Shown here piece by piece: positions 12,637 to 40,821 of a stretch of DNA of 64,000 bases. The first letter of the stretch is position 1. Each line of letters opens with the position of its first letter. This DNA comes from a virus: IMG/VR virus record IMGVR_UViG_3300045988_082835. One strand, written 5' to 3'. The position numbers were made by a program, and so were the translations under genes. Under the pieces are notes generated by a model. It worked only from the letters and a program-made list of their open reading frames with translations, did no database searches and was not told where the DNA came from.

Positions 12637-13401
12637 ATGACAAAACAAGAGCGCGCAATCAAGGCACGAGCGCATTATGAAGATATTAAAACTAGACTTG
12701 CCGCAAACACTAAATTATCTATCGAGCGCACATATGTATATAGTCCAGATTCTTTTACACAGCATGAATCCGGCAATCAGAAACCAGCTTTTACTCTAAC
12801 AGATATGGATAGTGTATCTTGCCTATTCAATTTATCTAACAATGGTAGAACAGCAATTCTTAACTACGCCAGTTATAAAAACCCGGGTGGATTTTTTCTA
12901 GGAGGTAGTCCCGCGCAGGAAGAGGCTCTTTGTCATGAATCCAATCTTTACCCTATCCTTCTTGCTTTTGATGAAACGTATTACGCATGGAATCGACAGA
13001 GATTAAATAAGGCTTTATATTTAAATAGAGCGCTGTATTCTCCTAGCGTAGTATTCGAGCGCAATGACAAACAAAAGGAAGCAGATATTATAACTTGTGC
13101 GGCCCCGAATTTCCGAACGGCGCATAGATACCAGAGTGTGAGTAAGAGCGAGAATGATAGAGTTCTTGAAGATCGAATTCACTTTATGTATCAGATTGCT
13201 GAGGAAAACGGTGTGGAAAATCTAATCGCGGGAGCCTGGGGTTGTGGAGTTTTTATGCAAGATCCGTATACGGTCGCAACCTTGCTCATAGGCGCAGCCC
13301 GCAATTATAATATTCCAAATATTTATTTTGCAATTCCTGACCGCAACTCCCAGAATTTTAGGGCATTTTTGAAAGCAGGTAAAGAATGTATAAACAGTTA
13401 A
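12637..13401 (+). CDS. PARG-like macrodomain protein (DUF2263/TIGR02452-type)
   Basis: signature NPGGFFLGGSPAQEEAL (GGG-x-QEE) and AGAWGCGVF; RBS AAAGGAGG. Confidence 0.65.
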   Translation: MTKQERAIKARAHYEDIKTRLAANTKLSIERTYVYSPDSFTQHESGNQKPAFTLTDMDSVSCLFNLSNNGRTAILNYASYKNPGGFFLGGSPAQEEALCHESNLYPILLAFDETYYAWNRQRLNKALYLNRALYSPSVVFERNDKQKEADIITCAAPNFRTAHRYQSVSKSENDRVLEDRIHFMYQIAEENGVENLIAGAWGCGVFMQDPYTVATLLIGAARNYNIPNIYFAIPDRNSQNFRAFLKAGKECINS

Positions 13402-13823
13402 TTATAGCTAGAAAAGATTTAAATATGTCTCCAGGTAAGCTGGCCGCACAAGTTTCCCATGCTTCTATTGCTTTTCTTTTAGAGAAAATACTTTGGGGAA
13501 GCAAAGAAGTAGTTAGGGAAAGAGATGGTATTATGTATCATGTGAATGTAAGTCTCGATACAGATTTATACCATAATTGGATAATAGAAGCAGAAACTAA
13601 AGTTGTTTGTCGAGCGAAAAATAAGAATGATTTATTGCGGGCGGTCGAAGCAGCTAAAGAGCTCGGTATGGAGGAGTATAAAGATTACTTTTTGATTTAC
13701 GATGCTTGCAGGACAGAGCTGGAAAAAGAGAGTCCTGAAGGGACTCTCACTTGTATTGGATTTAGGCCAATGGAAGCTGAGGAGATTGATAAGATTGGCA
13801 GAAAATATCAATTATACCATTAA
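13386..13823 (+). CDS. pth2: peptidyl-tRNA hydrolase, PTH2 family
   Basis: LIIARKDLNMSPGKLAAQVSHASIAF and C-terminal TLTCIGF...IDKIG motifs typical of PTH2. Confidence 0.65.
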   Translation: MYKQLIIARKDLNMSPGKLAAQVSHASIAFLLEKILWGSKEVVRERDGIMYHVNVSLDTDLYHNWIIEAETKVVCRAKNKNDLLRAVEAAKELGMEEYKDYFLIYDACRTELEKESPEGTLTCIGFRPMEAEEIDKIGRKYQLYH

Positions 13824-14393
13824 GGGATAGAATGGAAAATGGCTTATTATAAAATTTAAGGGGAATGGAGCCTTATATTCTTTGTGTTTAAATTGCGGAT
13901 TCACTCATTCGTGTTATAAGGAAGATGGCGATTTATTAGTTACCTATGATGAAGCAGGAGAATATAATTTTTGCCCTAGTTGTGGAGAAAAGATGAAAGG
14001 TTAAAAGTTTAGCCTTTCATCTTTTTTTCGTTATTGAGATTGAAAGTACGATTTAGATTTTGAAATGGCGTGGCAGAACAAATTTGCGAAAAAATTTCCA
14101 GTTTTTCCCAAAATACACCCTCCCCTTTCACATGGTAAAGTGCTGAAGTGTAGTCAGCCTCTTTCACTCATTAAAGTATGAAAGTAAAAAGCCACGCCCT
14201 AAAGGAATACGCGCGCGTAAAGGATTTATGCAAATTGCACAGTTGAACAATGTTTATTTTGTGCAAAAGAGAGAGAAAGAAATTTCAAAAAACTATTGAC
14301 AAACAGGGCAAACGGGTGTAAACTGGACTTGTCCAGTAGAGGACAGGGCAAAACTCAATGTACCTTGAAAATTAAAAATTTTCAAAAAAAGTA

Positions 14394-14422
14394 TTGACAA
14401 GTCTTAAAAGACTTGATACAAT
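14394..14422 (+). promoter_or_regulatory. sigma70-like early promoter TTGACA-17-TGaTACAAT (second at 14296..14324)
   Basis: consensus hexamers with 17-nt spacer upstream of 14474. Confidence 0.5.
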
Positions 14423-14473
14423 ACAGGCAGAACACAAGAGAACCACACCACAAAAAGAAAGAGAGTAAAAAAG

Positions 14474-14851
14474 ATGAAAAAGATTGATTTTACTAATGAT
14501 GATAGGAAGGTCATCATGGAGTACCTAGCCGCTAAGCAAGCAGTAGCGGCGGCAGAGGTTGCAGAGAAAGCGGCCAAGGCCAAAGCGAAAGAGGTTTTCA
14601 CCCGTTTGGGGAAAGAGTTCAAGACCACGGATAAGACCTCTTATCTGTACGGCACAGTCCAGATAAAGGGCGCCGCTCATGCGGTGGTCTATAAAGAGAC
14701 TACCGCTAAAGGAGCGATAGACTGGAAAGCCTACGCTTTAGCTAAAGGCGGCACAGAGGCAGAGGCGGAGCAATACCGCAAGCGTCCGACGGTCAGAACC
14801 TCTCTTGATTGGGCAACGAAAGACCAGCAAAAAGAACTCAATCAGCAGTAG
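14474..14851 (+). CDS. hypothetical early protein (Ala/Lys-rich)
   Basis: ORF track; two sigma70-like promoters upstream; terminator downstream. Confidence 0.5.
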   Translation: MKKIDFTNDDRKVIMEYLAAKQAVAAAEVAEKAAKAKAKEVFTRLGKEFKTTDKTSYLYGTVQIKGAAHAVVYKETTAKGAIDWKAYALAKGGTEAEAEQYRKRPTVRTSLDWATKDQQKELNQQ

Positions 14852-14856
14852 TTTAT

Positions 14857-14897
14857 AAACCCTGCCTTGCAAAACCCAAGGCAAGGCAGGGTTATAT
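14857..14897 (+). terminator. rho-independent terminator
   Basis: AACCCTGCCTTGC..GCAAGGCAGGGTT hairpin plus T-tract. Confidence 0.55.
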
Positions 14898-15126
14898 AAT
14901 CAAAAGAAAGAAGGCTGTATTATGAGGTATCAGTTGCAGGTTTTAGTGGGTGACAAAATGCGATACTATGAGCCGTCTACTTTTGCACACGCAAGATGGA
15001 GAGTAGACCATGAGCTTGTCAATCCTGACTATTGGATTGTAGACCTGTCTACCGGCGAAGCTATCAAGTAACCATATACCACAAGAAGCTGACCTAACGG
15101 CTATACGGGGAGAAAGGATAAAAGAT

Positions 15127-15513
15127 ATGTCTAACTTCATCAAGTATTACACCAATCCCACCTTTAATAAGCCTGAGTTCGTGCGTGTTCTCCGTTACTC
15201 CATGAATGTGAAGGCGGCCGCTGTGGATGATGGTATCATCCTTGACTTAGACGCTTTTAATGCTATCTCTAAGGCCGTCATGCCACATTGGGCCTTTATC
15301 AATGCACGGTATATCAACAGCAAGCTTCACACTCGTCCTGCCTCTCTTGACGAGTATAAGGCCGCTCTGGATAAGGACACCACAGAACAGCTTTATATCA
15401 TTCGGGATAACTATTATAATGAGTATGACAGGGTAACTGCCAAAGAATGGGATAGGCTTAATGCCGAAATCCCTGGACGGTATGACCTTCTGGGGAAGGA
15501 GCCTGCGGTATGA
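15127..15513 (+). CDS. hypothetical early protein
   Basis: ORF track 128 aa. Confidence 0.5.
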   Translation: MSNFIKYYTNPTFNKPEFVRVLRYSMNVKAAAVDDGIILDLDAFNAISKAVMPHWAFINARYINSKLHTRPASLDEYKAALDKDTTEQLYIIRDNYYNEYDRVTAKEWDRLNAEIPGRYDLLGKEPAV

Positions 15514-15720
15514 GAGTGCTACGGTATATAGGAGGCGGCCTTTGCGCCGCTCTCCTTCTCTGGATTGCTTTGAGCTGGGCTGACATAGTAGCAGATAACA
15601 GCTATCCAAATCCACAGCATAGTGAGTATAACTTCTTTACTGTGATGTTTTAATATTCTATCCGGTAATCTGCACAAAGATTGCCGGATATTTTTGTGCA
15701 CTTTCCCATATTGACTTTTC

Positions 15721-15765
15721 GCCGGGCCGCCAGCGTGCGCCGCGGCCCGAATTTTTGTTTGTTCG
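15721..15765 (+). terminator. GC-rich terminator of the GGCCCG..CGGGCC-GAATTTTT family
   Basis: family recurs at 17271, 18241, 19371, 20826, 22350 and 24140. Confidence 0.5.
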
Positions 15766-15831
15766 GCAGTTTCAACAATTATATGGCCAAAAGTTTGTGC
15801 AATCTGCCGAGAATTTTTCTCCCGAAATCGC

Positions 15832-15860
15832 TTGACATTCCTTTGTGGGTATGGTATATT
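15832..15860 (+). promoter_or_regulatory. early promoter TTGACA-17-TATATT preceded by the conserved CCCGAAATCGC element
   Basis: motif also at 17383..17411 and 18336..18364. Confidence 0.5.
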
Positions 15861-15913
15861 ATACTTGTCCAGAGAGACAGACCACAAAAAGAATTTGAAA
15901 GGAAGTAAAAGAA

Positions 15914-16153
15914 ATGGTGTGCTTCAAAGACGTTGTGATTTTGTTCCGGCAATACTCTTTCTGTCTGGAAGAGGATGCGGCTATTCAGGTAATCGACAGC
16001 AATACCGGCGCACATTTCCGGTTTGACAAGGAATGGAAGCTCCAGCTCGGCGGTGACTTTTATGGCGATGACCTCAGCGCCCTGTTCAAGAAGCAGGTGA
16101 CTGAGATTGAAATGAGAGAAGAAGGTGGCGTTAATATCTACATTAACGCATAA
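15914..16153 (+). CDS. hypothetical small early protein
   Basis: ORF track; promoter 15832..15860 with leader. Confidence 0.45.
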   Translation: MVCFKDVVILFRQYSFCLEEDAAIQVIDSNTGAHFRFDKEWKLQLGGDFYGDDLSALFKKQVTEIEMREEGGVNIYINA

Positions 16154-16191
16154 GAAACTGCGGGAGTGGAGGTCTATGACTTCCACTCCCC

Positions 16192-16404
16192 ATGATAAAA
16201 AATTCTATGGAGGTCAATTTCCGCATGATTACAAGAGAACAGTATAATATGGCAGAAGAACAGTGGAGAAATCTGTGGCATATTCGCAATAATCTTTATG
16301 AACAACTTGCTTTTGTTAATTCAGCAATAAAAGAAATCGAAGATAAATATTTCAAGTTAGAAAAGGAGGGGATTATCAATGACTATCGAGAGACTTCCGC
16401 GTGA
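16192..16404 (+). CDS. hypothetical small early protein
   Basis: ORF track. Confidence 0.4.
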   Translation: MIKNSMEVNFRMITREQYNMAEEQWRNLWHIRNNLYEQLAFVNSAIKEIEDKYFKLEKEGIINDYRETSA

Positions 16405-16649
16405 ATATCCTATTGGTTCCACTGTTTGGACTAATAAGGGATACGGAACAGTTTTGGCAAGACTGGGGAAATATCACCTTATCTGGTTACAGAGGCTGGG
16501 GCTGGCATAAGTCAGTCCTTGCTTTTTTCAAAAAAATATATTATAATAATTATAGAAAAATAAAGAAAGGAGTTTTTCTAATGACCTTAGAAGTGCTGAA
16601 AGCACTCGCGGTTATTTTTGGAGTTCTGTTTGAACTAGGATTCTTGTAA
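16401..16649 (+). CDS. hypothetical small protein with C-terminal TM helix
   Basis: ORF track. Confidence 0.4.
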   Translation: MNILLVPLFGLIRDTEQFWQDWGNITLSGYRGWGWHKSVLAFFKKIYYNNYRKIKKGVFLMTLEVLKALAVIFGVLFELGFL

Positions 16650-16786
16650 GAATTGTCCTATGGCTCAGTTCTGCCAGAAAATGCCTTGCGAGTGGTAATT
16701 ATTCCCTCCGATTGTTACAAATCGGCGATTCCCGTGATGGAGTCGTTTTTCGCACGAACCTAGGTCACTAGAATTTATTTATCAAA

Positions 16787-17023
16787 ATGCAAGAAACTAC
16801 TTTCTCAAGGAAATTGGATTCAAGTGGGCGCATCATGATTCCCGTAAGACTACGAGAGTAGATGGGCCTTGTTTCTGGTCAAGAATATTATTTCACTACT
16901 ATGGTAAAGGATGGCAGAAAATATATTTGTATCGACTGTGGCTCCGTTGACAATACTTCTCTTGAAGAAGCTATGCGAATTATACAAGCAAATGGAATGA
17001 AAATTGTTGAAAGTACCGATTGA
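16787..17023 (+). CDS. AbrB/MazE-family (SpoVT_AbrB fold) DNA-binding protein, one in-frame TAG
   Basis: RKLDSSGRIMIPVRLREQMGLVSGQEYYF resembles the swapped-hairpin AbrB N-domain; start uncertain (16712..16787). Confidence 0.5.
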
Positions 17024-17382
17024 CTTCCCGAAATTCTTATGTTAAAATTAAGTTATCAAAAGAAAGGAAGTTGAGAGATATGTATGAATTTGAGATTTTG
17101 CTTGAAAATGGCTCGACCGACAATATCTCTGGTTATTCCTATGAAGATGCTCTTTTCCGGTCTCGACGTAAACCTGAAGAGGTTGTAAAAGTTTTAAATC
17201 GAGAATATGTAGATTGAGATTTTCCTCCCAAAATGGGAGGAATTTCTTTTCCAATTCAAAATATATTGTTCAGCCGGCCGCGCATGAGCGCAGCGGCCGG
17301 AATTTTTTGTCAAGAGGCAATTTGCACAATTTTTGGATCAGTTTATTGGTGAAATTGACGGAAAGAAATTTCCCAAAATCGC

Positions 17383-17411
17383 TTGACTTTTCTCTCTCAT
17401 TCTGATATACT
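17383..17411 (+). promoter_or_regulatory. early promoter TTGACT-17-TATACT
   Basis: hexamers and spacing. Confidence 0.45.
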
Positions 17412-17463
17412 TAAACCATCAAGAGGGGAGAACAAAAGCCCTCAAGAAAGGGAGTAAAAGAAA

Positions 17464-17703
17464 ATGAAAAGCTATGTGGTTATGGCTGATAATCGTGAGA
17501 AGATTATCTGTGTATCTGATGATCTGCGGTTAGCTCGTGGCGCGGGCTGGGACTGGCTGAAAAAGCAATATAATCCCGATAACTGGCAGGATATTCTGGA
17601 GGATATGGACTACGAAAGCGAAAACGACCTGCGGCATGATATGCTCCTTGGGGCCTGCTGGGAAAATTTCGACATGGAAATTATCGAGGTAGAGAGGGTA
17701 TAA
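17464..17703 (+). CDS. hypothetical early protein
   Basis: ORF track; promoter 17383..17411. Confidence 0.45.
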   Translation: MKSYVVMADNREKIICVSDDLRLARGAGWDWLKKQYNPDNWQDILEDMDYESENDLRHDMLLGACWENFDMEIIEVERV

Positions 17704-17878
17704 TCCCTCTCTACCGCAGGAGGAACTAGCATGACCACTTTTATCATAATTGTTCTTGCCATTTGCCTGACTATCCAGTATGTGACCGCTATAATAAAAA
17801 ACCATTTCCTGCTTGCTATACTTTTCGCCGCCGAAATTATAATGTTTGGATATATTATAAATACTCCGATATAAAGGG

Positions 17879-17907
17879 TTGACAAATCCAACCCTTTATG
17901 ATATAAT
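17879..17907 (+). promoter_or_regulatory. early promoter TTGACA-17-TGaTATAAT
   Basis: hexamers and spacing. Confidence 0.5.
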
Positions 17908-17957
17908 AATACCATCAAGAGAAGGAAAACTCTATAAAACCAGAAAGGAAGTATGTT

Positions 17958-18197
17958 ATGACTATCAAGATGCCCAAGATGACCGAGGAAGATAGGGACA
18001 GTCTGATTGCTCTTCATACAGCAATGCGTTTGATAGACCGGAGTTCGGCCGACTCCGCTTTGGTTCAGTCTTTGGGGAAGTTCCTGCGTGAAGATACCTG
18101 TACTCCCGATGACGCGGCCACTATTTTGAAGGCGGTCTTCGACGAAGAGGCTGACCGCAGAGCTAACGAAATTGGCATTGATTTCCCTATGATGTAA
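17958..18197 (+). CDS. hypothetical early protein
   Basis: ORF track; promoter 17879..17907; terminator 18199..18236. Confidence 0.45.
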   Translation: MTIKMPKMTEEDRDSLIALHTAMRLIDRSSADSALVQSLGKFLREDTCTPDDAATILKAVFDEEADRRANEIGIDFPMM

Positions 18198-18198
18198 A

Positions 18199-18236
18199 AG
18201 AAATGCTCCCGGTTTTCCGGGAGCTTCTTTTTTATT
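18199..18236 (+). terminator. rho-independent terminator
   Basis: GCTCCCGG-TTTT-CCGGGAGC + T8. Confidence 0.6.
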
Positions 18237-18335
18237 TGCATAATATTGGGCGGATCGCGCAGGGTTGGCGCGATCCGAATTTTCTATGATTAGCAGTTTC
18301 AACAAAATATGTTTGCAAATGTTGTGCATTTTGAC

Positions 18336-18364
18336 GATTGACACTTCTCCCGAAATCTGCTATA
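18336..18364 (+). promoter_or_regulatory. early promoter TTGACA-17-TATACT
   Basis: hexamers and spacing. Confidence 0.45.
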
Positions 18365-18431
18365 CTATTAAATGTAAAGAGGGGAAACGAGTAAAACCTC
18401 TCAAATTAAAACAGAAAGGGAGTTTTTAGAA

Positions 18432-18827
18432 ATGCGTGTTACTAAGAGAATTGAAGAATATGTTCGTGACGAGGTTCGCAAGATTTCTGCCTGTAAGGAG
18501 GCGGCTATCCGGGAGAGGTATCAGCCAGAGTTCGACGCGCTGGAGGCTTTTAAGGAGGCTATCGTCAAGTCGGCCAATGAGCTGGGCGATACTATCCAGG
18601 CGGAAATGCAGGCTAAGGGCTATAAGACTTCCAGATATTGCGAGAATGTCATCCAGACCTGCACTTGCGGCATTTATACTCCGGCCAAGAAAAAAATGGA
18701 TGATGAAATCGCAGAGATTAACACATGGATTAACGAGCAGACCCGGCTCATGTGCGTCAAATTGGAAATGGGTGGAGATATGAACACCTTAACAGCCATG
18801 CTTGAGGAACTGCGCAAGGAGTTTTAA
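18432..18827 (+). CDS. hypothetical early protein
   Basis: ORF track; promoter 18336..18364. Confidence 0.45.
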   Translation: MRVTKRIEEYVRDEVRKISACKEAAIRERYQPEFDALEAFKEAIVKSANELGDTIQAEMQAKGYKTSRYCENVIQTCTCGIYTPAKKKMDDEIAEINTWINEQTRLMCVKLEMGGDMNTLTAMLEELRKEF

Positions 18828-18857
18828 GGAAGGAGGTAGAGAGGGCAAGCAATAGCC

Positions 18858-19337
18858 TTGCCCTCTCTAATAAAAAAAATGAAAGTAACTGGCATTGTGC
18901 GGCGCATTGATGATCTCGGCCGGGTAGTAATTCCTAAGGAAATTCGTCGGAATATGAATATTCGGGAAGGCGACCCGCTAGAAATCTTTATTGAAGATGG
19001 CGGGGTGGTTTTCAAGAAATATTCCCTACTATCTTCTTTTGCTCCTCAGGCCGCACATATTCAAAAAGTTTTAAGCATTAACGGCATTTCAGCGTCGGTT
19101 TTTGATAATTCAAGTCTTTTGTGCGGCCCTCGCCCCTTCGGAATGTCAAAGACCCCGGATGAATGGTTCAATATTCGTAATTGGGGTACTGAATGGAAGG
19201 GAAAATCGTTGTTTGTTACTCCTATTATTGCAGAAGGTGAGGTAATCGGCTTTATTTGCTATAAAAACGATAAAGAATCAGCGCATGATATGGTTCGACT
19301 TTCTGCGCAATTTCTAGCTCAATTTGCAGAAAATTAA
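18858..19337 (+). CDS. SpoVT/AbrB-family transcriptional regulator (AbrB N-domain plus C-terminal domain)
   Basis: MKVTGIVRRIDDLGRVVIPKEIRRNMNIREGDPLEIF closely matches the AbrB/SpoVT N-terminus; 159 aa like SpoVT. Confidence 0.7.
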   Translation: MPSLIKKMKVTGIVRRIDDLGRVVIPKEIRRNMNIREGDPLEIFIEDGGVVFKKYSLLSSFAPQAAHIQKVLSINGISASVFDNSSLLCGPRPFGMSKTPDEWFNIRNWGTEWKGKSLFVTPIIAEGEVIGFICYKNDKESAHDMVRLSAQFLAQFAEN

Positions 19338-19370
19338 AGAGGGCTTCGGCCCTCTTTTTTATACCAAAAT
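19337..19370 (+). terminator. rho-independent terminator
   Basis: AGAGGGCTTCGGCCCTCT + T-tract (same hairpin at 22318 and 54148). Confidence 0.6.
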
Positions 19371-19423
19371 TTCGACGGCGCGCTGACGCTCACAGCGCGC
19401 CGAGTTTTCTTGTTTGTAAGTTC

Positions 19424-19492
19424 TGCACAATTTTTGACTTGAAATCTTGTGCAAAATGTCATCTTGCAATTATCCTTAAATTATGGTATTAT
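19424..19492 (+). promoter_or_regulatory. regulatory cassette: operator-like palindrome TGCACAA-N16-TTGTGCA then promoter TTGCAA-17-TGGTATTAT; near-identical copy at 20881..20949
   Basis: about 70-bp duplicated block; inverted half-sites. Confidence 0.5.
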
Positions 19493-19519
19493 TAGTACAG
19501 AAAGAAGGAGGGACACTAA

Positions 19520-19744
19520 ATGAAACCTTCAAAGTTTATTCGGCCTAATGAGTGTTTAACTGTGGCTGAAATCTACCGCCGCCAATTTGGTGGTACTACC
19601 ACCCCAGAGAATTATGGGATCTATATGCAAGCTATTCTTTTGCGCGACCCTCTAATTTATGTGGATTATACGTCAATGCCTTATAAGGTATATCGGCATA
19701 AAAATTTCTTTGAAAAACTTGTTGACAAGATAGGCAACAGGTAG
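19520..19744 (+). CDS. hypothetical early protein
   Basis: ORF track; promoter 19464..19492 with flanking operator palindrome. Confidence 0.4.
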   Translation: MKPSKFIRPNECLTVAEIYRRQFGGTTTPENYGIYMQAILLRDPLIYVDYTSMPYKVYRHKNFFEKLVDKIGNR

Positions 19745-19774
19745 TATAATAAAACAAAAGGAGGTTATATATAT

Positions 19775-20239
19775 ATGATAACTAAAAAAATGCTCTGCTT
19801 TGATATGGACGGGACAATTGCAGATCTATACGCAGTCCCCAACTGGCTTGAAAAACTCCGCGATGGAGACCCCAGCCCATTCCGAGACGCCGCCCCCATG
19901 TGGGATATGAACGCCCTCCGAAATGCGCTTCTAAACGCAATTAGTAACGGGTGGGAGGTTCGAGTTATTACATGGTTGCCCCCTGAAAGCCCCCCTGAAT
20001 ATAAGAAAGCAGTCACAGCCGCCAAAAAGGAATGGCTTGCAAGGCATAAATTTCCGGCCCATAAATGCCATTGTGTGGCGTATGGAACAACTAAAGCTAA
20101 ATGTGTATTCCGTAGTTTCTATGAACCGCCGTTTATCCTCTTTGATGATAACGGCAAAATTAGAAACGGCTGGCATTTAGGGGATACCGTAGACCCCCAA
20201 ACTACAAACATTATTGAATATATCAACAATCTGGACTAA
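19775..20239 (+). CDS. HAD-superfamily hydrolase, probable 5'(3')-deoxyribonucleotidase
   Basis: motif I MLCFDMDGTIADL (DxDGT). Confidence 0.55.
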   Translation: MITKKMLCFDMDGTIADLYAVPNWLEKLRDGDPSPFRDAAPMWDMNALRNALLNAISNGWEVRVITWLPPESPPEYKKAVTAAKKEWLARHKFPAHKCHCVAYGTTKAKCVFRSFYEPPFILFDDNGKIRNGWHLGDTVDPQTTNIIEYINNLD

Positions 20240-20242
20240 ATA

Positions 20243-20273
20243 AAAGGGGCGGGTGAAATCCCCGCCCCATATC
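20243..20273 (+). terminator. rho-independent terminator
   Basis: GGGGCGGG-TGAAAT-CCCGCCCC. Confidence 0.55.
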
Positions 20274-20295
20274 TGGAAAATACGTAAAAAAGTTC

Positions 20296-20324
20296 TTGAC
20301 AATCTCACCGCATTGTGGTATAAT
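20296..20324 (+). promoter_or_regulatory. early promoter TTGACA-17-TGGTATAAT
   Basis: perfect consensus. Confidence 0.55.
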
Positions 20325-20549
20325 TTAATCATCAAGAGGGGATAACCCTCATAAAAGAAAGGAAGCTTTACTATGATGAATTTCTACTTTAAGACTGCGG
20401 CGGGCCATGTGTTCGTGGGTGTCGGTAAGGATGTTGACCGTGCCCGTTCTGATGCCAAGCGCAAGGCCGGTTCTCTTTGGTCGCCTTCGGCCAAGTGCTT
20501 CAAAATCGGGAACGCCATTTAAGGCGTTCCCAATAGAAAGAAAAGTTAT

Positions 20550-20786
20550 ATGAGAGTTAAAATTTCAATTTCTATCCAGCGTGAGTTAGAGGTCGATCAT
20601 CCTATCTTCCAACAGCTGGCCGATATTCATAGAAAAGGCCCGGCTTCAGTTGCAAACGATATTATGTATGATATTGCCACTAAAGAAATTGAGAGAGTGA
20701 CAGGAATTTCCACTGATTACAATAAATCTATCTCCATCACCAGCGTAGATGCTCTGCCTGATGAAACACCAATTTTAGAGTTTTAA
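20550..20786 (+). CDS. hypothetical early protein
   Basis: ORF track. Confidence 0.4.
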   Translation: MRVKISISIQRELEVDHPIFQQLADIHRKGPASVANDIMYDIATKEIERVTGISTDYNKSISITSVDALPDETPILEF

Positions 20787-21062
20787 AAAAATCCTCCCTA
20801 AATGGGAGAATTTTTTATATAAAGAAAATCAGCGGCCCGCGCTTGAGCGCCGCGGGCCGAATTTTTTTCTGTTGTAATGTTGCACAATTTTCAAGCAGAA
20901 ATCTTGTGCAAAATGCCATCTTGCAATTATCCTGAAACTATGGTATTATTATCATGTCAGGAGGAAAGGAAAAAGTTCTCCAGAGTAGGGTAAAGAGTCC
21001 CTTTTGTGAGAGAGGTTATCGCGACGCCTTTTTCAACGGAGAAAAAAAATATAAAATCCCTC

Positions 21063-21091
21063 TTGACACCAAGCCTTAAATGTGCTATAAT
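21063..21091 (+). promoter_or_regulatory. early promoter TTGACA-17-TGcTATAAT
   Basis: perfect consensus. Confidence 0.55.
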
Positions 21092-21125
21092 GATACCACC
21101 AAGAGAAGAAAGGACTTGATAGATT

Positions 21126-21950
21126 ATGATTGATAAACGCCGACATTATGTGCTGGTGGTTGATACAGAAACCGCCAACACATTAACCGAGACTGTCCCC
21201 GCTGAAATTGGGGAAGATGGGGAAATTATTACTCCAGAGCGCGTCCGTATGGATATGTCAAATGTTTTGGTATATGACTGCGGCTGGGCGGTCGTAGACA
21301 CCAAAGGCAATATTTACGAAACCGCAAGTTTTGTAAATCGGGATATTTTCAATGACGAGCGGGATTTAATGCGGACGGCCTATTATAACTGGAAAATCCC
21401 CCGGTATGTAGAGGAATTGCGGGCTGGCAGTCGCAAGATGGCTACTACCTATGAAATCCGTCAGGCCATGCTGGACACTATCGAGCGGTACGGCATTAAG
21501 GAGGTCGCCGCATATAATGCCCGCTTCGATGATAACGCCCTTCGGGTCACTCAGCGTTGGGTCACTTGTTCCAAATTCCGGTATTGGTTCCCATTTGACA
21601 GCGTGGAAATTTGGGACATTATGAAAATGACGCAAGATGTCATTTGCCAGATGCCCACCTATAAGAAATTCTGTGAGGAACACGGGTATGTGCAGGCTAA
21701 TGGCGTTCCCCGCAAGACTGCGGAAATCGTGTGGCGGTTTATCTCCGGCAACACTGATTTTGAGGAAAGCCACACGGGACTGGAAGATGTTCTGATTGAG
21801 GCGGAAATCATGTGGTACTGTATGCGCCAGCATAAGCCCATGAGAAAGGCCCTGTATGAGAACAAGCGGGAGTTTCCGCCCATGACAGATTTTCAGCGTC
21901 AGCTTTCCGCAAGTTTGCGGCAGATTCCGACAATCCGGGTCGGGGCTTAA
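21126..21950 (+). CDS. DEDDh-type 3'-5' exonuclease (DnaQ/RNase T-like)
   Basis: VLVVDTETAN (ExoI), AAYNARFDDNAL (ExoII), HTGLEDVLIEAEIMW (ExoIII). Confidence 0.6.
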   Translation: MIDKRRHYVLVVDTETANTLTETVPAEIGEDGEIITPERVRMDMSNVLVYDCGWAVVDTKGNIYETASFVNRDIFNDERDLMRTAYYNWKIPRYVEELRAGSRKMATTYEIRQAMLDTIERYGIKEVAAYNARFDDNALRVTQRWVTCSKFRYWFPFDSVEIWDIMKMTQDVICQMPTYKKFCEEHGYVQANGVPRKTAEIVWRFISGNTDFEESHTGLEDVLIEAEIMWYCMRQHKPMRKALYENKREFPPMTDFQRQLSASLRQIPTIRVGA

Positions 21951-22486
21951 TGCCCCGCCCGGTAGAAGGAGAAATAAGAAATGTTTCAGGGATTAAAGAA
22001 TAAGGCTATTCGCTTCCTACTTGAGCGGACGTGCCCAGATGTATTTACCATCAAGGCCATGCTTTCCAAGGTAACGCAGAAAGAAATGCAGTTTTATGCC
22101 GACCAGTTCTACTCAAAGAAAGAGGGTTAAATATGCAAACAAGAATTGTATATACTTCTTCCCTTTGTCCCGATGCCGTTTTCACGGCGCTTGAAATCAT
22201 CAAGCGTATGGGATGGAGCCATGATGAACCCGATGAAAACGGGGATATACTGGTATCCATCCCCGCCGAGGATGAACACCTGTTCGACTTTTTAGATAAC
22301 TGCCTTTTCGGATAAAAAGAGGGCTTCGGCCTTCTTTTTTTGTTTTATATTTTGGCGGGTCGCGCATGGGCGGCGCGACCCGATTTTTTCCTTGTAAATG
22401 TTGCACAAAAAATTTGATTCCGTTTTGTGCAACATTTTGCACAAAAACCCTATCCCAAAATCACGTTCTTTTGGAGGATCTCACAA

Positions 22487-22790
22487 TTGAAATCCGCTTT
22501 GTGGTGTGGTACAATAAGTACAGAAAGTGAGAGAGACGAACGGCAGACAGCGACAGCGAACTTTCAAAAATCTTTCAAAAAACCTCTTGACAAGCCCTTG
22601 TGAGTGTGCTATAATAAGTACAGAAAACAAGGCAAGGAACCTTGAAAAGTGAATAAAAAAGGGCTTGACAAACTCTCCAAAGTGTGTTACACTATAAGGG
22701 GAACGAGAGAGGGCAAACAAGTAAAGGGCAAAAGCTCTTGAAAAAAGTTTGAAAAACCTCTTGACAAACTCCCGATAGTGTGGTACAATA
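22487..22790 (+). promoter_or_regulatory. array of four tandem sigma70-like promoters (22487, 22588, 22665, 22762), each with an AAAACCTCTTGACAA -35 context
   Basis: TTGAAA-17-TACAAT; TTGACA-17-TATAAT; TTGACA-17-TACACT; TTGACA-17-TACAAT. Confidence 0.45.
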
Positions 22791-22838: not shown

Positions 22839-23240
22839 ATGAGCGAGAAGAAAATCCGTATCACTAAGGCCCAGCGTTTCGAGGACATTAAGGCCCTCTT
22901 GGCTGGTGAGGAGGTGAAGCATGGCACAACCATGGAGATTGCCATGACCGTCATTGACCATGAGCTGGAGCTGTTGCGGAAGAAGAATAGCTCCGGCGGT
23001 GACAAGAAGCTGACCCCGACCCAGCAGGAGAACGAGAGCCTGAAGGAGCAGATTATGGAGTATCTGGCCGGCCTGCCCGATGACACCGACGGCGTGACCT
23101 GTACCGACATTTTCAAGTCTGTGCCCTCTCTGGCCGCTTTCTCCACTCAGAAGGCCGCCGCCCTTGTGCGGATGCTCAAGCTGGACGGCCGTGTGACCTG
23201 TCAGGAGAAGAAGGGCAAGTCTCTCTTTAAGATGGCGTAA
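22839..23240 (+). CDS. hypothetical early protein
   Basis: ORF track; preceded by four tandem sigma70-like promoters. Confidence 0.45.
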   Translation: MSEKKIRITKAQRFEDIKALLAGEEVKHGTTMEIAMTVIDHELELLRKKNSSGGDKKLTPTQQENESLKEQIMEYLAGLPDDTDGVTCTDIFKSVPSLAAFSTQKAAALVRMLKLDGRVTCQEKKGKSLFKMA

Positions 23241-23735: not shown

Positions 23736-23743
23736 GTATTCCA

Positions 23744-24102
23744 TAGTTAGCACACAGACACGGGAAAAGGAGTTTCTATACGTCGGGCATTATGTAGACG
23801 TAAAGGGACGCTATATTCTCAAGATTGGCACAACAAACGACCTCGAAAGACGGGCCGCCGAGCATACAAGGAATTATAAACGGGCAAAAGACTATACCAT
23901 GCCTGTGGATAGTGCTTTTTCCTATGATTGGTATATCCGGTTATCTAAGTATAATACCCTTCGATATGAGGACTTGAACCGGACTTTATGGCAAAATATG
24001 GGAATTGGACATTTTATCAGAAACGACCGCTTTCTCTGTGACACGCCCCCGCGCATGGTAACAGTCATTATCCGCAAGGCATACCCGGTTATTCTAAGCT
24101 AA
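23744..24102 (+). CDS. T5orf172/GIY-YIG-like domain protein; start codon unclear
   Basis: LYVGHYVDVKGRYILKIGTTNDLERRAAEH motif; no in-frame ATG upstream of the conserved domain. Confidence 0.4.
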
Positions 24103-24139: not shown

Positions 24140-25450
24140 CAATATGCGGGCGGGCCGGTCGCGGGCGACTCGGCCCGAATTTCCCCGATCGGACCATAGC
24201 GCAAAATTTTCATAGCAAGTTGGCCATAACGCAACTTAGTCTAGAATCTCCCAAAATTATATTATAACCCGATCGGTTTTCTATCTTATCCCGATCGGTC
24301 CAGCAATAGCGGCTTTCTCGTCCATTTTTTATAATAAAAAAATTTAAAATTGTCAAGTGTTCATAAGACTAACATTATCCCCTATACAGCTAACAATAGC
24401 AAAGATGTTGCTATGAAAAACAAATACCAGCGAGAGATTTTTCTGCGGCGCCGATCGGAATAACGAGATTTTATAATAAAAATAGCTAGAAAATTCTACT
24501 TTTAGCTAGGTAAACCGATCGGTCCGCAGGTTTTTCCTCTTGTTTTTCTCTTAATATAGCGAAAATTCTCTAAAAATCTAGCAAAAACGCACATTTTTCT
24601 AATAAAATTACTTAAAAATTAGCAAAATTTGCCTCATTTTCAGCAAATCTTCTTGATGTTCACCCTTTCTATACTTTTATAGATACAATTAAAAAGACTT
24701 ATTCTCTAGCTAAGAATTTTCTAGTCGATGCCTCAATCAGAGAAGTTATTTTAGAATAAAAGATCTTTAAGCTAGGGCCGATCGGTTGCAATTTATAAAA
24801 TAATATTATATAATATAAATATAAAAGGAAAGAAAAGAGGAATATATTCCATGGATTATACTAATATGATTAAATGTGCTCTTGATGGCGGTGCGTCTCT
24901 CGACGATATTGCTAAGGAGTTTACTGATGCTCTAAATGTCTTTAATAAGCAGAATCAGGTTCGGAAGGCTCGTCAGCAAGCTTTGGATGAAATTGAGTCG
25001 ACTTTCTAAATGCTGTTGATGATGAGCATCTTGATGCAGAGCATATCGGACAGCTTGCAGTTCTTATTTATGCTCCTTCTCACCCTGAGTGGGATGCTGA
25101 TACTATCAATAAATATGCAGAGGCTATCACTGAGACTGCTCGTATTTCTGCCCGAATTGTCGGGATGAATAATATCAATGATGCACTTGCAGCGACAGAG
25201 GAAGAGCTTGATAAGATAATTGAGAAGGCGATTCAGGAGATGCGAAATGAATCGGTCTCCGTTTCCATCAAGAGCAACAATGATGAAGATGTGGTAGCTA
25301 AGTTCTTGAGAGGGCTTAGATAAAAGAGAGGTAGAGATACCTCTCTTTTTTTATTGCTATTAAACAAGAGGAAAGAAGTAGAAGAATCGCGGAAGCCTAG
25401 GTTTACGATCGTTTTGACGAGTGTTGTGATGGTTGTACCTAGACCCGATC
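24140..25450. repeat. seven copies of the palindrome CCGATCGG scattered through an AT-rich non-coding region
   Basis: copies near 24185, 24262, 24288, 24447, 24518, 24778 and 25443; AGCAAAA direct repeats at 24570..24650. Confidence 0.5.
24841..25323 (+). CDS. hypothetical protein in two frames (51-aa N-part, about 100-aa C-part) joined by an apparent -1 shift at CTTTCTAAATG
   Basis: both parts protein-like; frame change at T-TTC-TAA. Confidence 0.3.
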
Positions 25451-25454
25451 GGCA

Positions 25455-25530
25455 CCCAACTCTACTATTTCTCCAATTTTCTCTACTATTTCTCCAATTT
25501 TCTCTACTATTTCTCCAATTTTCTCCAATT
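25455..25530. repeat. tandem direct repeat TCTACTATTTCTCCAATTTTC x3.5
   Basis: visible 20-21-bp periodicity. Confidence 0.6.
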
Positions 25531-25869
25531 TCACTTATATTCTCCCTATAGTCTATCCACTTTCTTATGGCTTCGCTTGTAATCTAACTCGAATCCTCAT
25601 ATAGATTCAATAATCCCTTTTCCTCTACCTCTATTAATCTCTCTTACCCTACCCATTACTCTTCTTCTTGACTTTTCCCTTTAATTTTTGATTCGATTTT
25701 TCTAAAACCTTCTTCCAGCTTTTCAATTCGATTTTCTAAATCATTTGCTCCCATCGTCCCATCTATACTTCCTTGAATATCCTCCCACCTCTGAAAATCT
25801 TCCATGGTTATCCTCCCTATCCATCGCTTTCTCACAAATACATGAAAAAGTCGCCGTTGTCTTTTCTTT

Positions 25870-26110
25870 GTTATCTTATATATATGTTATATTTATGGTA
25901 TTGTCAGAATACCATGAAATGGATTTTTATTTACTTTCATGGTATTGTCAGAAAACCATGTCATAGTATTGTTGGAATACCATGAAATAAATCTTTCAAT
26001 TAAAATCATAGTATTGTCAGAATACTATGAAATTTTCATAGCTTTCCAACAAATACATGATTTCATAGGTTTCTCACAATACTATGAAATTCATGGTATT
26101 CTCAGAAATA
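25870..26110. repeat. six iteron-like imperfect palindromes CATGGTATTGTCAGAATACCATGAAAT spaced 30-45 bp apart
   Basis: repeated units with dyad GGTATT..AATACC; next to the wHTH and RHH genes. Confidence 0.55.
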
Positions 26111-26118
26111 CATGAAAA

Positions 26119-26517
26119 TTAAAACGAAAATTTTTCTCCGTTAGGAGCGACATAATTATATTTATCCTCGTCAATAATTTTAGGAACTTCGTAAAAATCG
26201 TAATACCCCTTCTTCTCAAGAGGAATCAAATACCCTTTTTCTACCAATCCTTCTATTGCATTTGTATATTTAGCTTTCTTTATACCCAACTCCCTCTCAA
26301 TAATAGTAGGGCCAAAATCATAATCTGTCAACTTCTCTGACTAACTAGCAAAAAATATCCATAAAGAAAACTCACCATCACTAAGTTCTCTTCTCGCCGC
26401 AAATAAAGCATCCTTATTAATTCTAGCATATATATTATTAGTATTACAAGGCTCTTTATGAATATGACTTACTGTTCGCTAATTAGGACTTCTTCTTTTG
26501 TCTGCCATGGCAATCAT
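26119..26517 (-). CDS. winged-helix DNA-binding protein (Rep/regulator-like), 2 in-frame TAG
   Basis: ERELGIKKAKYTNAIEGLVEKGYL wHTH-like; ORF-track 26119..26331 extended through TAG. Confidence 0.45.
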
Positions 26518-37580: not shown

Positions 37581-37675
37581 CCCGCGGTAGCTCAACGGTA
37601 GAGCAGCCGGCTTATACCCGGTATTAGCGCCAGATTAGCGTGAGGTTTGGGGTTCGAATCCCTGGCGCGGGACCA
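37581..37675 (+). tRNA. atypical 95-nt tRNA: standard acceptor, D- and T-arms, anticodon loop CTTATAC (UAU), 25-nt unpaired extra region
   Basis: cccgcgg..ccgcggg acceptor, gctc/gagc D-stem, ttcgaat T-loop, ACCA 3' end. Confidence 0.4.
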
Positions 37676-37737
37676 TAGGCGTAACGCTGCACGCCCTCGA
37701 AAGAGGTATCACAGAAGGCACATACAGCAAAGTTATT

Positions 37738-37811
37738 TTCCGAATAGTCTAATGGTTGGACATTTTAATTGAAATAAAAAGTTATGGGTTCGAATCCCAT
37801 TTTGGAAGCCA
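37738..37811 (+). tRNA. class-I (short variable loop) tRNA with anticodon UGA (Ser UCA family); U1:A72, G73, G10
   Basis: clean cloverleaf; anticodon stem ttttа/taaaa, loop ATTGAAA. Confidence 0.55.
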
Positions 37812-37889
37812 TCTAGTGCCTTGAAATTATTTGAAAAACTTTTATAAATATGATATAATATTTATAGAAAGTGAGAGAGGAAGTTGTTT

Positions 37890-38099
37890 ATGGATAAGAA
37901 ATTATACCTCGCGCAACTTGCCGCTAAGGCCATGTCCTGTTACAGCGATGAAGATGTAGTTTGTGATAGCCTTTGGCTTATGAATGGCGGCATTGGTGGG
38001 CCAGAGGAACAGTGGGAAAACTTTCTCAAGGTTTTTAAGGATACCTTTGGTATTTCCTATGATGAAGCTAAACAACTGAATCTTTTTGAAAAACAATAA
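37890..38099 (+). CDS. hypothetical small protein
   Basis: ORF track 37884..38099; ends ..EKQ* inside the next promoter. Confidence 0.45.
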   Translation: MDKKLYLAQLAAKAMSCYSDEDVVCDSLWLMNGGIGGPEEQWENFLKVFKDTFGISYDEAKQLNLFEKQ

Positions 38100-38289
38100 A
38101 AAATATGTTATAATATTTATATAAGGCAGATACAGCAAATTATTTACAAATAAAACGCTTATTTTGGTTTAAGAAAGTTTATTTATTCTGCCTTGAGCTT
38201 GGGTCGGTAGCTCAGAAAAATTTTTGGGTAAAGTGAGCTAAAGATAATTCACTAATTCTTATATATTATATAAAGGAGAGTGAATTGTT

Positions 38290-38811
38290 ATGCCGACAGC
38301 GTTGGATTTAACTGGACAAAAATTTGGAGCATTAACAGCAGTTTCAAAAGCTCCAAGTAGAAGTGGTAAAACATATTGGCTATGTAGATGTGAATGTGGG
38401 AACGAGAAAGAAGTTTAGACAGGTCATTTAACTTCTGGAGCTATTTAGAGCTGCGGATGTAAGTAGCATTTAAAGAAAAATAGTGGAAAAAATGTAGTTA
38501 ATTTTAGAAAACGAATTAAGCTAGCATTGGTGGAAGGTTTTTCTCATAAATGCTCTTACTGCGGATTGCGGGATGCACCTCAGTTATACGACTTTCATCA
38601 CGTTGACCCATCTACAAAAAGTTTTGGTATCGCAAATTCTTCTACTACAAGAAGTAAATAGGCTTATGCAGATGAAGCAAAAAAGTGTATAATGCTATGT
38701 GCTAATTGTCACAGAAGAATTGAAAATGGTCTAATTTCTTTAGATGATTTTACGCCAATCTTATTTGATGAAGAGAAGTATTTCAAAACTCTTGAGGATT
38801 TGATTTCATAA
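38290..38811 (+). CDS. HNH homing endonuclease with N-terminal LTGQKFG Zn-finger module, TAG-recoded
   Basis: FHHVDP...CANCHRRIE HNH motif; several in-frame TAG. Confidence 0.6.
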
Positions 38812-38821
38812 TCCTCAATAT

Positions 38822-38895
38822 GGATCGCTAGTTCATCGGTAGAACGCAAGGCTGTTAACCTTGATAGCATGGTTCAACTCCATGGCGATCCGCCA
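38822..38895 (+). tRNA. tRNA-Asn(GUU)
   Basis: loop CTGTTAA; acceptor ggatcgc/gcgatcc; CCA encoded. Confidence 0.85.
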
Positions 38896-39021
38896 GAGTC
38901 AAGTTTGTGAGTAGCGTCGTGACTTTAACCCTAAACTCTCAATTCGTCCACTGCGAAGGAAAATAAAAGGCTGGCCCAATAGAGCGACGGGTGGTTCTGA
39001 AACAAATAGTTGCTCTTTTAT

Positions 39022-39098
39022 GTTCTCGTGGCGCAATAGGCAGACGCGCGTGGCTTAGAACCACGATGTTGCGAGTTCGACTCTCGCCGAGAACACCA
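39022..39098 (+). tRNA. class-I tRNA with anticodon UAG (Leu CUA family) and A73
   Basis: anticodon stem cgtgg/ccacg, loop CTTAGAA, 5-nt variable ATGTT, T-arm gcgag-ttcgact-ctcgc. Confidence 0.55.
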
Positions 39099-39196
39099 AA
39101 GAAGAGTCGCGAAAGGATCTGTCCAGAAAAAATTTGTATCACAAGAACTTCCGGTGTAGCTCAGTTTAACCGTCTGGCCGGCTCTTCTATTTATAT

Positions 39197-40507: not shown

Positions 40508-40539
40508 TAAATCAATAGGAAAAGGAGATAAATCTTATT

Positions 40540-40779: not shown

Positions 40780-40821
40780 ATAAGTGGAGACCTAAGCAAG
40801 TCGATAAACTGCTTGTTATAT

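Follow-up and report, generated by a model that had tools for sequence, protein, structure and literature searches.

In a 64,000-nucleotide stretch of viral DNA (IMG/VR record IMGVR_UViG_3300045988_082835, hereafter the window), the plus-strand block from 14.2 to 24.2 kb contains recurring cassettes of ~130 bp that combine a GC-rich hairpin, a 32-bp inverted repeat, and a host-type promoter in front of small open reading frames (ORFs). These cassettes are real and conserved, and almost certainly regulatory and recombinational alike. The block is probably the early region of the phage, composed of expression units that are joined by a four-part composite cassette, with an operator that would be read by a regulator belonging to the phage family itself. 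The phage is a large gut phage of ~100-165 kb that reads TAG as glutamine and comes from an uncultured, abundant family.

The half-site TTGCACAA and its complement TTGTGCAA occur nine times in the window against 1.87 expected, a count reached in 0 of 100 shuffled sequences, and all occurrences lie within 14259-22444. The paired form, TGCACAA-N10-24-TTGTGCA, was found four times against 0.01 expected. Enrichment of the palindromes over shuffled sequence had been named beforehand as a check on the original prediction of such cassettes, and it was borne out. The hairpin pattern CGGNNCGC-N11-GCGNNCCG occurs five times, with 0.01 expected, and a repeat search gave seven hairpin copies. The motif TCCCRAAAT, which was absent from the original prediction, is present 10 times against 2.0 expected, with eight of the 10 copies located within or beside the block. 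Promoter-like sites numbered 41 versus 22 ± 4.9 in shuffles, five of them being perfect 12/12 matches (TTGACA-17-TATAAT), and terminator-like sites numbered 29 versus 11.7 ± 3.0.

Alignment of the six window copies with ~100 distinct copies from relatives yielded the order of elements in a unit: its own ordinary terminator, an interval of 17-33 nt, the 27-nt hairpin, a linker, the palindrome, and the promoter (Table 1). The palindrome consensus is TTGCACAA (w)TTT-N8-AAA(w) TTGTGCAA. Two promoter arrangements are used. In the first, the -35 box follows the palindrome after 8-9 nt, the TCCCGAAA box is situated in the promoter spacer, and the -10 box is TG-extended; in the second, TCCCGAAATC comes first and the -35 box follows at +29. 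Comparative footprinting strengthened the predicted reading as terminator, operator, promoter, and small-ORF cassettes, while several of its details did not hold. Instead of at least eight units sharing the full order, six combine GC hairpin, palindrome, and promoter, and two further promoters have a palindrome and no GC hairpin. The gap between the half-sites, put at about 16-18 bp, is always exactly 16 bp. Cassettes C4 and C5, described as near-identical duplicates of ~70 bp, match at 61 of 69 positions (88%), and at 91 of 119 (76%) when the hairpin is included. A leader hairpin had been assigned to every unit; about half of the units have one, and it is clear at ~7 of 16 promoters, for example, at C2 (z = -4.3) and P20296 (z = -3.5), with none at C4, P19722, P17020, and P14394.

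For the comparison with relatives, 24 related loci (L001-L024) were recovered with the 274-amino-acid (aa) protein encoded at 21126-21950 (76-99% protein identity), and distant contigs (L173-L176) were reached via homologues of a small AbrB-like protein encoded in the block. Several TTGCACAA-N16-TTGTGCAA sites are present in all 24 loci, with constant N16 spacing, and ~30 related loci keep the half-sites, the N16 spacing, the distance from hairpin to palindrome (19-22 nt), and the TCCCGAAA box, whereas spacers and linkers diverge. In a 330-nt upstream alignment that was anchored on the gene and not on the motif, nearly invariant half-sites enclose divergent spacers, e.g., TTTTCAAGCAGAAATC, TTTTGGCGGCAAAAAG, and ATTTCTCGATCAATCT; this alignment also displays compensatory hairpin variants, conserved -35 and -10 boxes, and the TCCCGAAA box. 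The palindrome is still present in L173-L176. The 274-aa neighbor in L173 and L174 is 27% identical, yet the palindrome, the 8-9-nt gap to the -35 box, and the TCCCGAAA box are kept, and in most copies of the distant relatives the hairpin still ends ~21 nt before the palindrome, with a linker of unrelated sequence. The information content amounts to 1.6-1.75 bits per position in the half-sites versus 0.36 in the spacer, a comparison that is inflated by the choice of instances. Individual sites recur as well: the C0 palindrome is kept at the same place in L002-L007 and L024, the site at 16980 has a counterpart in L010-L023 (TTGTCCAA-N16-TTGTTCAA, with promoter), and CTGCACAA-N16-TTATGCAC, a palindrome of the same form as the site at 15670, precedes an identical GC hairpin sequence in L002 and L004. 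An exact operator scan of viral contigs returned at least 120 loci, which is approximately the chance estimate for 16 fixed bases in a collection of this size, and only the contigs of the same family are informative here.

The two 8-mers of the inverted repeat are each pseudo-palindromic (TTG-YR-CAA), with their centers 24 bp apart and A/T tracts on the inner side. Since they are complementary to each other, and C4 and C5 are obvious paralogues, the repeat might be an RNA or DNA stem-loop or a relic of duplication that has no protein partner. However, where one half deviates from the consensus, the other half does not compensate (TTCAACAA..TTGTGCAA in C1 and C3, TTGCACAA..TTGGTGAA in C2, and TTATACAA..TTGTTGAA at 16980), which argues for a protein site rather than a helix. 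Moreover, the repeat is positioned upstream of its own promoter, and the half-sites, the N16 spacing, and the distances are fixed where all flanking noncoding DNA has diverged. We therefore give an inverted repeat without a protein partner hardly any credence. With its dyad symmetry, its conserved spacing, its diverging spacer and flanks, and its fixed distance to the promoter, the site has what distinguishes a protein-bound operator at the sequence level, and we treat it as a predicted operator.

Among 35 nonredundant instances, the distance between the end of the operator and the -35 box is 8-9 bp in 20 cases and 29 bp in six, and the TCCCGAAA box has a fixed offset in 23, lying 18-21 nt from the palindrome in either promoter arrangement. 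When the start site is taken ~7 nt past the -10 box, the operator dyad is near -61 or -82, and the two arrangements are 20-21 bp, or two helical turns, apart. This spacing of the -35 box by two helical turns argues for a protein that binds there and works on RNA polymerase. A comparable layout is known for regulator p4 of phage phi29, with the sites 5'-CTTTTT-15 bp-AAAATG-3' (PMC3100819). In both cases, phages of Firmicute hosts carry short inverted repeats ~15-16 bp apart with inner A/T tracts, and several such sites are found beside host-polymerase promoters, at or upstream of the -35 box. It is a feature of p4 itself that one protein activates a promoter with a weak -35 box and represses strong early promoters. 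In contrast to phi29, family searches detected no p4 homologue in the window block, the half-site sequence is different, and the window sites, for which binding is predicted from sequence, are distributed over 8 kb with one per unit, whereas phi29 has four clustered sites that form a single switch.

The hairpin has the consensus CGGnCCGCGC-N7-GCGCGGnCCG (27 nt), followed by A(A/G)TTT(T). Over 38 distinct copies, 93.7% of the stem cells are paired, compared to 73.3% when the columns were shuffled and 33-43% in slid controls, although the copies were picked as paired windows beside palindromes, which inflates the percentage. Both sides change in seven of 10 stem pairs, and the covariation score is 0.52 versus 0.15 (0/500 shuffles). 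Among the non-Watson-Crick cells, G·T occurs 23 times and A·C six times, and the folding energies range from -15 to -23 kcal/mol. The bias of G·T over A·C and the compensatory stem changes point to selection on the plus-strand RNA. In six of the seven window copies, a run of 4-7 T's follows after a spacer of one or two purines, and an ordinary terminator is located 17-33 nt upstream of every copy. From these sequence features, and with reservations, the hairpin would be a back-up terminator or insulator behind the terminator of each unit. In view of the conserved CGG..CCG ends and the flank CCGARTTT, a recognition role is conceivable.

Such a role could go further, and the hairpin might primarily be a structure-specific recombination or protein-recognition site that mobilizes the units, comparable to what has been speculated for the stem-loops of promoter-early stem-loop (PeSL) cassettes, or to integron attC sites, and this would be compatible with our main explanation. 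It would fit with the constant length of 27 nt and with ends and flank that are conserved even where the T-run is reduced to three T's, with a terminator role that is redundant in view of the ordinary terminator upstream of each copy, with an indel junction between the window and L024 that falls inside the 5' GGCGG of the hairpin, and with a core gene for a T5orf172 (GIY-YIG-related) protein that ends 48 bp before the last hairpin. On the other hand, the preponderance of G·T over A·C speaks for a selected plus-strand RNA and not for a DNA cruciform, six of the seven window copies do carry 4-7 T's, and, since the hairpin is the first repeated element of the cassette, homology begins there anyway. 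In addition, other junctions lie past the hairpin (19405) or within the palindrome, and family searches found no recombinase in the block. A primary role as such a recombination or recognition site is in our view unlikely. The T5orf172 protein (23743-24102; 22.7 bits versus a cut-off of 20) has a conserved stretch of 50 N-terminal residues that lacks an in-frame ATG, GTG, or TTG start. We also observed a similarity between CCCGAATTT, which is the conserved sequence 3' of the hairpin, and the TCCCGAAAT box (e.g., 15746-15754 and 15820-15828). They are located ~37 bp on each side of the operator dyad in direct orientation, which could reflect a four-site array with a period of ~24-26 bp.

That the cassettes also coincide with gene gain and loss, a point absent from the original prediction, is indicated by a comparison with the closest relatives, L001 and L024. 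Homology with these loci resumes at 18248, 19405, 20833 (in both), and 24149, in each case at most 3 nt from a hairpin edge, and the pieces that are missing or replaced are whole units. At the place of the orphan hairpin that closes the window block, L024 has a hairpin, palindrome, promoter, two ORFs, terminator, and hairpin, with the junction in the 5' GGCGG. Cassette C4 of L001 is chimeric: its spacer and promoter are those of C4, its hairpin is foreign, and its linker is of the C5 type. Fourteen of the ~25 block ORFs are shared with a part of the relatives only, and hardly any ORF could be assigned to a Pfam or PHROG family. Judged from these junctions, and irrespective of regulation, the ~120-bp cassettes almost certainly serve as homologous joints for insertion, deletion, and swapping of orphan-gene units.

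Mobile cassettes of this kind have been described as PeSLs in T4-type phages (Arbiol et al. 2010, PMC2839356; Comeau et al. 2014, PMC4122927). The common features are a repeated intergenic GC-rich stem-loop or terminator with a strong host-type early promoter, here in six window cassettes and ~30 related loci, and a variable region full of small orphan ORFs, where the motifs delimit the indels and replacements that distinguish close relatives. However, PeSLs belong to T4-type phages of Gram-negative hosts, whereas the window lineage is TAG-recoded with a probable Clostridia host. PeSLs are described as promoter and stem-loop only, whereas the window cassette has a built-in 32-bp palindromic operator and a TCCCGAAA box at fixed distances, and the window hairpin has a constant length of 27 nt and ends in CGG/CCG in place of polyG/polyC. 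Since the phage is not of the T4 type and the motifs are not homologous, the window cassettes are an analogue of PeSLs and not members of the group.

As to the protein that reads the operator, the original prediction pointed to two AbrB-like regulators, of which the smaller one is still a reasonable candidate, with a gene in every relative (25/25 loci) and an N-terminal DNA-binding loop, SRKLDxxGRIMIPxxLR, that is nearly invariant in a 24-member alignment. Its length of 78 aa is only attained when the in-frame TAG at 16859, which the original prediction did not mention, is read as Gln; this reading is backed by the family comparison. The protein scores below the Pfam cut-offs (MraZ, 21.2 bits versus 23; MazE_antitoxin, 18.3 versus 24.7), matches PHROG 4681, "antitoxin," at 7e-8, and matches AbrB chains weakly (E = 0.012). 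The AlphaFold2 model of the monomer has a predicted local distance difference test (pLDDT) score of 75.6, and its top Foldseek matches are AbrB, SpoVT, MazE, Sso7c4, and C68, with probabilities of 0.92-0.99 and E-values of only 9e-3 to 0.2. The protein thus resembles the AbrB/SpoVT/MazE swapped-hairpin proteins in its GRxxIP loop and in a model for which AbrB, SpoVT, and MazE are the best matches, and it differs from them in scoring below the Pfam cut-offs, in having no toxin partner, and in being amber-recoded. AbrB itself is known for a loose consensus only (TGGNA repeats) and not for a defined pair of palindromic 8-mers. When the small protein was used as a probe of viral contigs, only the same phage family was found, and its co-occurrence with the operator is therefore not independent. 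We tentatively regard this AbrB-fold protein as the binder of the palindrome, a possibility that we rate at somewhat less than even. A reading of the gene as part of a toxin-antitoxin pair was rejected: its downstream neighbor varies between relatives, and nothing toxin-like was found in the block. The sequence TAGGTCANTAGAA, considered as a phage-specific promoter of this gene, is not enriched (5 versus 7.5 expected).

In 21 of 25 loci, the AbrB-like gene contains a single in-frame TAG, and none is found in the other confidently delimited genes of the block. When the 15 distinct AbrB-like sequences are compared, a single TAG is found in 10, at position 25, 32, 40, or 75, no sequence has two, and the counterpart residue in the other members is mostly Gln. 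One TAG in most family members means that the full-length protein requires a suppressor tRNA there. The codon usage of the gene is of the late type, with CAA over CAG and a G+C content at third codon positions (GC3) of 0.32. Conceivably, the gene is an amber-gated regulator: as the sole TAG gene of the early block it would encode the binder of TTGCACAA-N16-TTGTGCAA, the suppressor tRNA-CUA would be the clock that flips early transcription, and, with the spacing of 19-22 nt, the bound protein would act as a roadblock, by which weak hairpins would become efficient terminators. We consider this scenario as a whole doubtful. The gene is preceded by a mini-operon (16520-16790) with a conserved sigma-A promoter and Shine-Dalgarno sequence and a 38-aa Cys-rich ORF, in which TAG and CAG alternate between relatives and which in the window is out of frame owing to a T5 run (T4 in relatives). 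The mini-operon further contains a conserved structured spacer of ~90 nt that includes a terminator-like hairpin. A Shine-Dalgarno sequence is lacking in front of the AbrB ORF, and the first ORF of the mini-operon is flanked by the two arms of an inverted repeat, TTCTAATGACC (16576) and GGTCACTAGAA (16763).

Another candidate, equally open and absent from the original prediction, is the core 133-aa protein with a C-terminal winged helix-turn-helix, which would be made early and abundantly and feed back on the cassette promoters, with long N-terminal helices giving an extended dimer that spans 24 bp. All 25 loci and the distant L173 and L176 carry its gene, which lies behind four tandem promoters of which C6 is the first and has a GC3 of 0.78. 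The model has a pLDDT of 87.7, and its C-terminal half matches the winged helices of PerR/Fur, ArsR, MarR, and Z-alpha with probabilities of 0.99-1.0, but the Foldseek E-values are only 3e-3 to 3e-2, and no Pfam or PHROG family was matched. The presumed recognition helix (model residues 103-115, as assigned here) and the wing vary in relatives (Q104 to S, R112 to G), whereas the half-sites are constant, and this tips the balance slightly to the AbrB-fold protein, so that we consider the winged-helix protein a less likely binder. Alternatively, a host DNA-binding protein might read the palindrome and/or the TCCCGAAA box, the phage having placed host control sites before its early promoters. The motif is unchanged while the phage proteins diverge to 27-55% identity, as would be expected for a conserved host reader, and neither candidate regulator gene has a palindrome at its own dedicated promoter. 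However, the sites are confined to an 8-kb early block within the 64-kb window. To our knowledge, the palindrome also matches none of the Firmicute regulator sites (Rex, CcpA, CodY, LexA, CIRCE, AbrB TGGNA, and CRP/FNR-type), which counts against a host factor as well, and we consider such a reader improbable.

The larger of the two predicted AbrB-like regulators, the 152-aa protein, proved to be a true homologue of SpoVT. Its N-domain matches PF04014 with 43.7 bits (cut-off, 24.7; E = 2.6e-11) and the SpoVT structure PDB 2w1t with E = 2.3e-22, and is nearly identical to that of B. subtilis SpoVT. The C-terminus remains below the cut-offs for SpoVT_C (17.0 bits versus 27.5) and GAF (17.4 versus 22.4), with a weak collinear match of residues 109-149 to SpoVT residues 131-175. 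As a gene transcribed from cassette C3, it would be autoregulated if its product bound the palindromes and controlled the cassettes. The emphasis that the original prediction placed on this protein was nevertheless wrong, since the gene is absent within ±10 kb in nine of the 24 palindrome-bearing loci (L003-5, L007, L012, L015, L016, L021, and L023), several other loci carry an N-terminal fragment only, and no TTGCACAA-N16-TTGTGCAA site with at most two mismatches was found in 20 cellular spoVT loci (108 kb). An accessory gene is unlikely to encode an obligate binder, and we rate this protein as a very unlikely reader of the operator. Homologues of spoVT and abrB are among the sporulation-gene homologues carried by gut phages (PMC10294663), and an auxiliary, host-directed role would fit with these. 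Going by its sequence and distribution, the gene is accessory and probably a captured, host-directed sporulation regulator of the host. An extra short gene with only an AbrB-type N-domain, 62% identical to the first 47 residues of the SpoVT homologue, occurs at 8371-8511 in L001 and at 6740-6880 in L024, in a unit that is missing from the window. Taken roughly, the AbrB-fold protein ranks first among the candidate binders, followed by the winged-helix protein, with a small share for the SpoVT homologue; what is left goes to a factor of the host or one not yet seen.

Apart from the way in which the hairpin copies were picked, several observations weigh against units that are controlled by a phage-family regulator in the manner proposed here. 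The AbrB-like gene's own promoter is without the TTGCACAA palindrome, and as the AbrB-fold and winged-helix genes are both in every locus, presence and absence cannot separate them. Five of the 15 distinct AbrB-like sequences have no TAG, so that the amber gate is dispensable. In relatives, many of the cassette promoters are close to consensus (TTGACA / TGnTATACT) and would need no activator, and the hairpins at 24151 and in distant relatives are followed by only TTT after two purines, which makes them poor intrinsic terminators.

With regard to the genetic code, the ORF coverage at 4-12 kb increased from 0.20-0.27 to 1.00 once TAG was read as sense, and TAG accounts for 40% of the Gln-type codons in the long minus-strand genes between 1814 and 10873. 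In the plus-strand block, 0 of 65 Gln-type codons are TAG (genes between 14474 and 24102, outside one mini-operon), the G+C content is 43-47% versus 33-40% in the rest of the window, GC3 is also raised, and CAG is preferred over CAA. By its codon usage, the window looks like a two-dialect genome, with TAG-rich minus-strand genes and a TAG-free early block. In-frame TAG aligns with Gln in homologues and a suppressor tRNA-CUA is present, in agreement with Code 15 (TAG = Gln). The gene content comprises 29 tRNA genes, among them that of the suppressor tRNA (anticodon CUA), together with a tmRNA and a ROOL RNA of full length (350 bits), in regions 37581-55885, 44377-44707, and 47254-47849. A search of a reference phage collection with the 7-kb region gave four short patches (120-195 nt) and no related annotated phage, and the phAss-1 group, which consists of TAG-recoded gut phages (PMC10607447), is a remote relative only. 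Cellular homologues of the SpoVT gene come from genomes of Oscillospirales and other Clostridia, with at most 39% full-length identity, which suggests that the host probably is one of the gut Clostridia.

For gut phages, it has been proposed that stop-codon recoding serves as a timing device (Borges et al., bioRxiv 10.1101/2021.08.26.457843), and the dependence of the full-length AbrB-like protein on the suppressor tRNA in most family members agrees with this idea. The window phage has in common with such phages (see also PMC10607447) a standard-code host, a phage suppressor tRNA-CUA, TAG read as Gln, and a TAG-free early block next to TAG-rich late-type genes. However, the published idea concerns lysis and lysogeny genes, whereas here the sole recoded gene of the early block encodes a putative DNA-binding regulator, and its amber gate is found in only 10 of the 15 distinct AbrB-like sequences.

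Table 1. Cassettes, palindromes, and genes discussed in the text (window coordinates)
Feature	Coordinates	Strand	Details
Palindrome C0, TTGCACAG-N16-TTGTGCAA	14235..14266	+	No GC hairpin; 29 bp 5' of the -35 box of promoter 14296-14324; second tandem promoter at 14394-14422
Extra palindrome, CTGCACAA-N16-TTGTGCAC	15670..15701	+	Overlaps terminator of the upstream gene (15659-15690)
Cassette C1	15723..15860	+	Hairpin 15723-15749; palindrome 15771-15802 (TTCAACAA..TTGTGCAA); TCCCGAAAT box 15820-15828; promoter 15832-15860; drives ORF 15914-16153
Small AbrB-fold protein gene	16787..17023	+	78 aa; TAG = Gln at 16859-16861; core gene; candidate operator-binding protein
Degenerate cassette	16980..17048	+	No hairpin; TTATACAA-N16-TTGTTGAA at 16980-17011, inside 3' end of AbrB-like gene; promoter 17020-17048, TCCCGAAAT in spacer
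Cassette C2	17274..17411	+	Hairpin 17274-17300; palindrome 17322-17353 (degenerate right half TTGGTGAA); box 17371-17379; promoter 17383-17411; clear leader hairpin; drives ORF 17464-17703
Cassette C3	18251..18366	+	Hairpin 18251-18277; palindrome 18298-18329; promoter 18338-18366 with box 18348-18356 in spacer; drives 18432-18827 and SpoVT homologue
SpoVT homologue	18879..19337	+	152 aa; AbrB-type N-domain and weak GAF-like C-domain; accessory gene
Cassette C4	19376..19492	+	Hairpin 19376-19402; palindrome 19423-19454; weak-(-35) promoter 19464-19492 (TTGCAA / TGgTATTAT); drives ORF 19520-19744
Cassette C5	20833..20949	+	Hairpin 20833-20859; perfect palindrome 20880-20911; promoter 20921-20949; upstream of consensus promoter 21063-21091 and core gene 21126-21950 (274 aa)
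Cassette C6	22356..22515	+	Hairpin 22356-22382; perfect palindrome 22401-22432; third half-site 22437-22444; box 22453-22461; promoter 22487-22515, first of four tandem promoters (22487, 22587, 22665, 22761; ~80-100 nt apart) preceding 22839-23240
Winged-helix protein gene	22839..23240	+	Core 133-aa protein, C-terminal winged helix-turn-helix (predicted structure); candidate operator-binder
Orphan cassette hairpin	24151..24177	+	Closes the block; from repeat search
Suppressor tRNA (anticodon CUA)	54919..54993	+	Required for reading the TAG of the AbrB-like gene

Several further features of the block and its surroundings were recorded. The GC3 of the winged-helix gene is the highest in the window, and it is probably the strongest-expressed early gene. 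Two early genes terminate at TAG (14849-14851 and 19742-19744) and would be extended by the suppressor tRNA; readthrough of 19520-19744 is in frame with 19775-20239 and would give a 239-aa fusion. Just upstream of the block (12637-13823) are two genes with homologues on related contigs that match Pfam PARG_cat_microb (poly-ADP-ribose glycohydrolase-like) and PTH2 (peptidyl-tRNA hydrolase). Directly after the last cassette hairpin, in AT-rich noncoding DNA between 24185 and 25452, the palindrome CCGATCGG occurs seven times against 0.46 expected; the gene set that follows may thus have control sites of a second class. It is followed by a tandem repeat of TTCTCCAATTTTCTCTACTAT at 25465-25535 and an iteron-like array of CATGGTATTGTCAGAATACCATGAAAT and variants at 25880-26130, which may represent a replication origin or a binding array.

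According to the mechanism that we propose, the early block would be transcribed by the host polymerase and be legible in the standard genetic code. Each cassette would begin with the 27-nt hairpin, acting as plus-strand RNA together with CCGARTTT(T) as a back-up terminator or insulator, followed 19-22 nt downstream by the inverted repeat TTGCACAA-N16-TTGTGCAA as the putative operator of a sequence-specific regulator of the phage family. The third part would be a sigma-A-type promoter with a TG-extended -10 box and a -35 box at 8-9 or 29 bp from the operator, which would keep the dyad on one helical face, and the fourth would hold the expression signals, in many cases with a 5' leader hairpin, followed by a strong Shine-Dalgarno sequence ahead of one or two small ORFs. 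The bound protein would act directly on RNA polymerase, either as a class-I-type activator of the members with a weak -35 box or as a switch that, like phi29 p4, activates or over-stabilizes. The small AbrB-fold protein would be the most likely binder; as a tetramer with two dimeric swapped-hairpin heads, it could reach sites 24 bp apart. Hypothetically, the one in-frame TAG of its gene would delay its synthesis until the phage suppressor tRNA has been made.

These data provide a regulatory map for a TAG-recoded family of gut phages, with eight predicted operator sites, defined promoters, and two candidate regulators. They extend the PeSL idea beyond T4-type phages, with an operator that is built into the cassette, so that an acquired gene would arrive wired into the control circuit. 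The module of terminator, operator, promoter, and leader could serve as a genetic part for Clostridia. If the AbrB-fold amber gene indeed encodes the binder, code switching would be tied directly to the timing of transcription in these phages.

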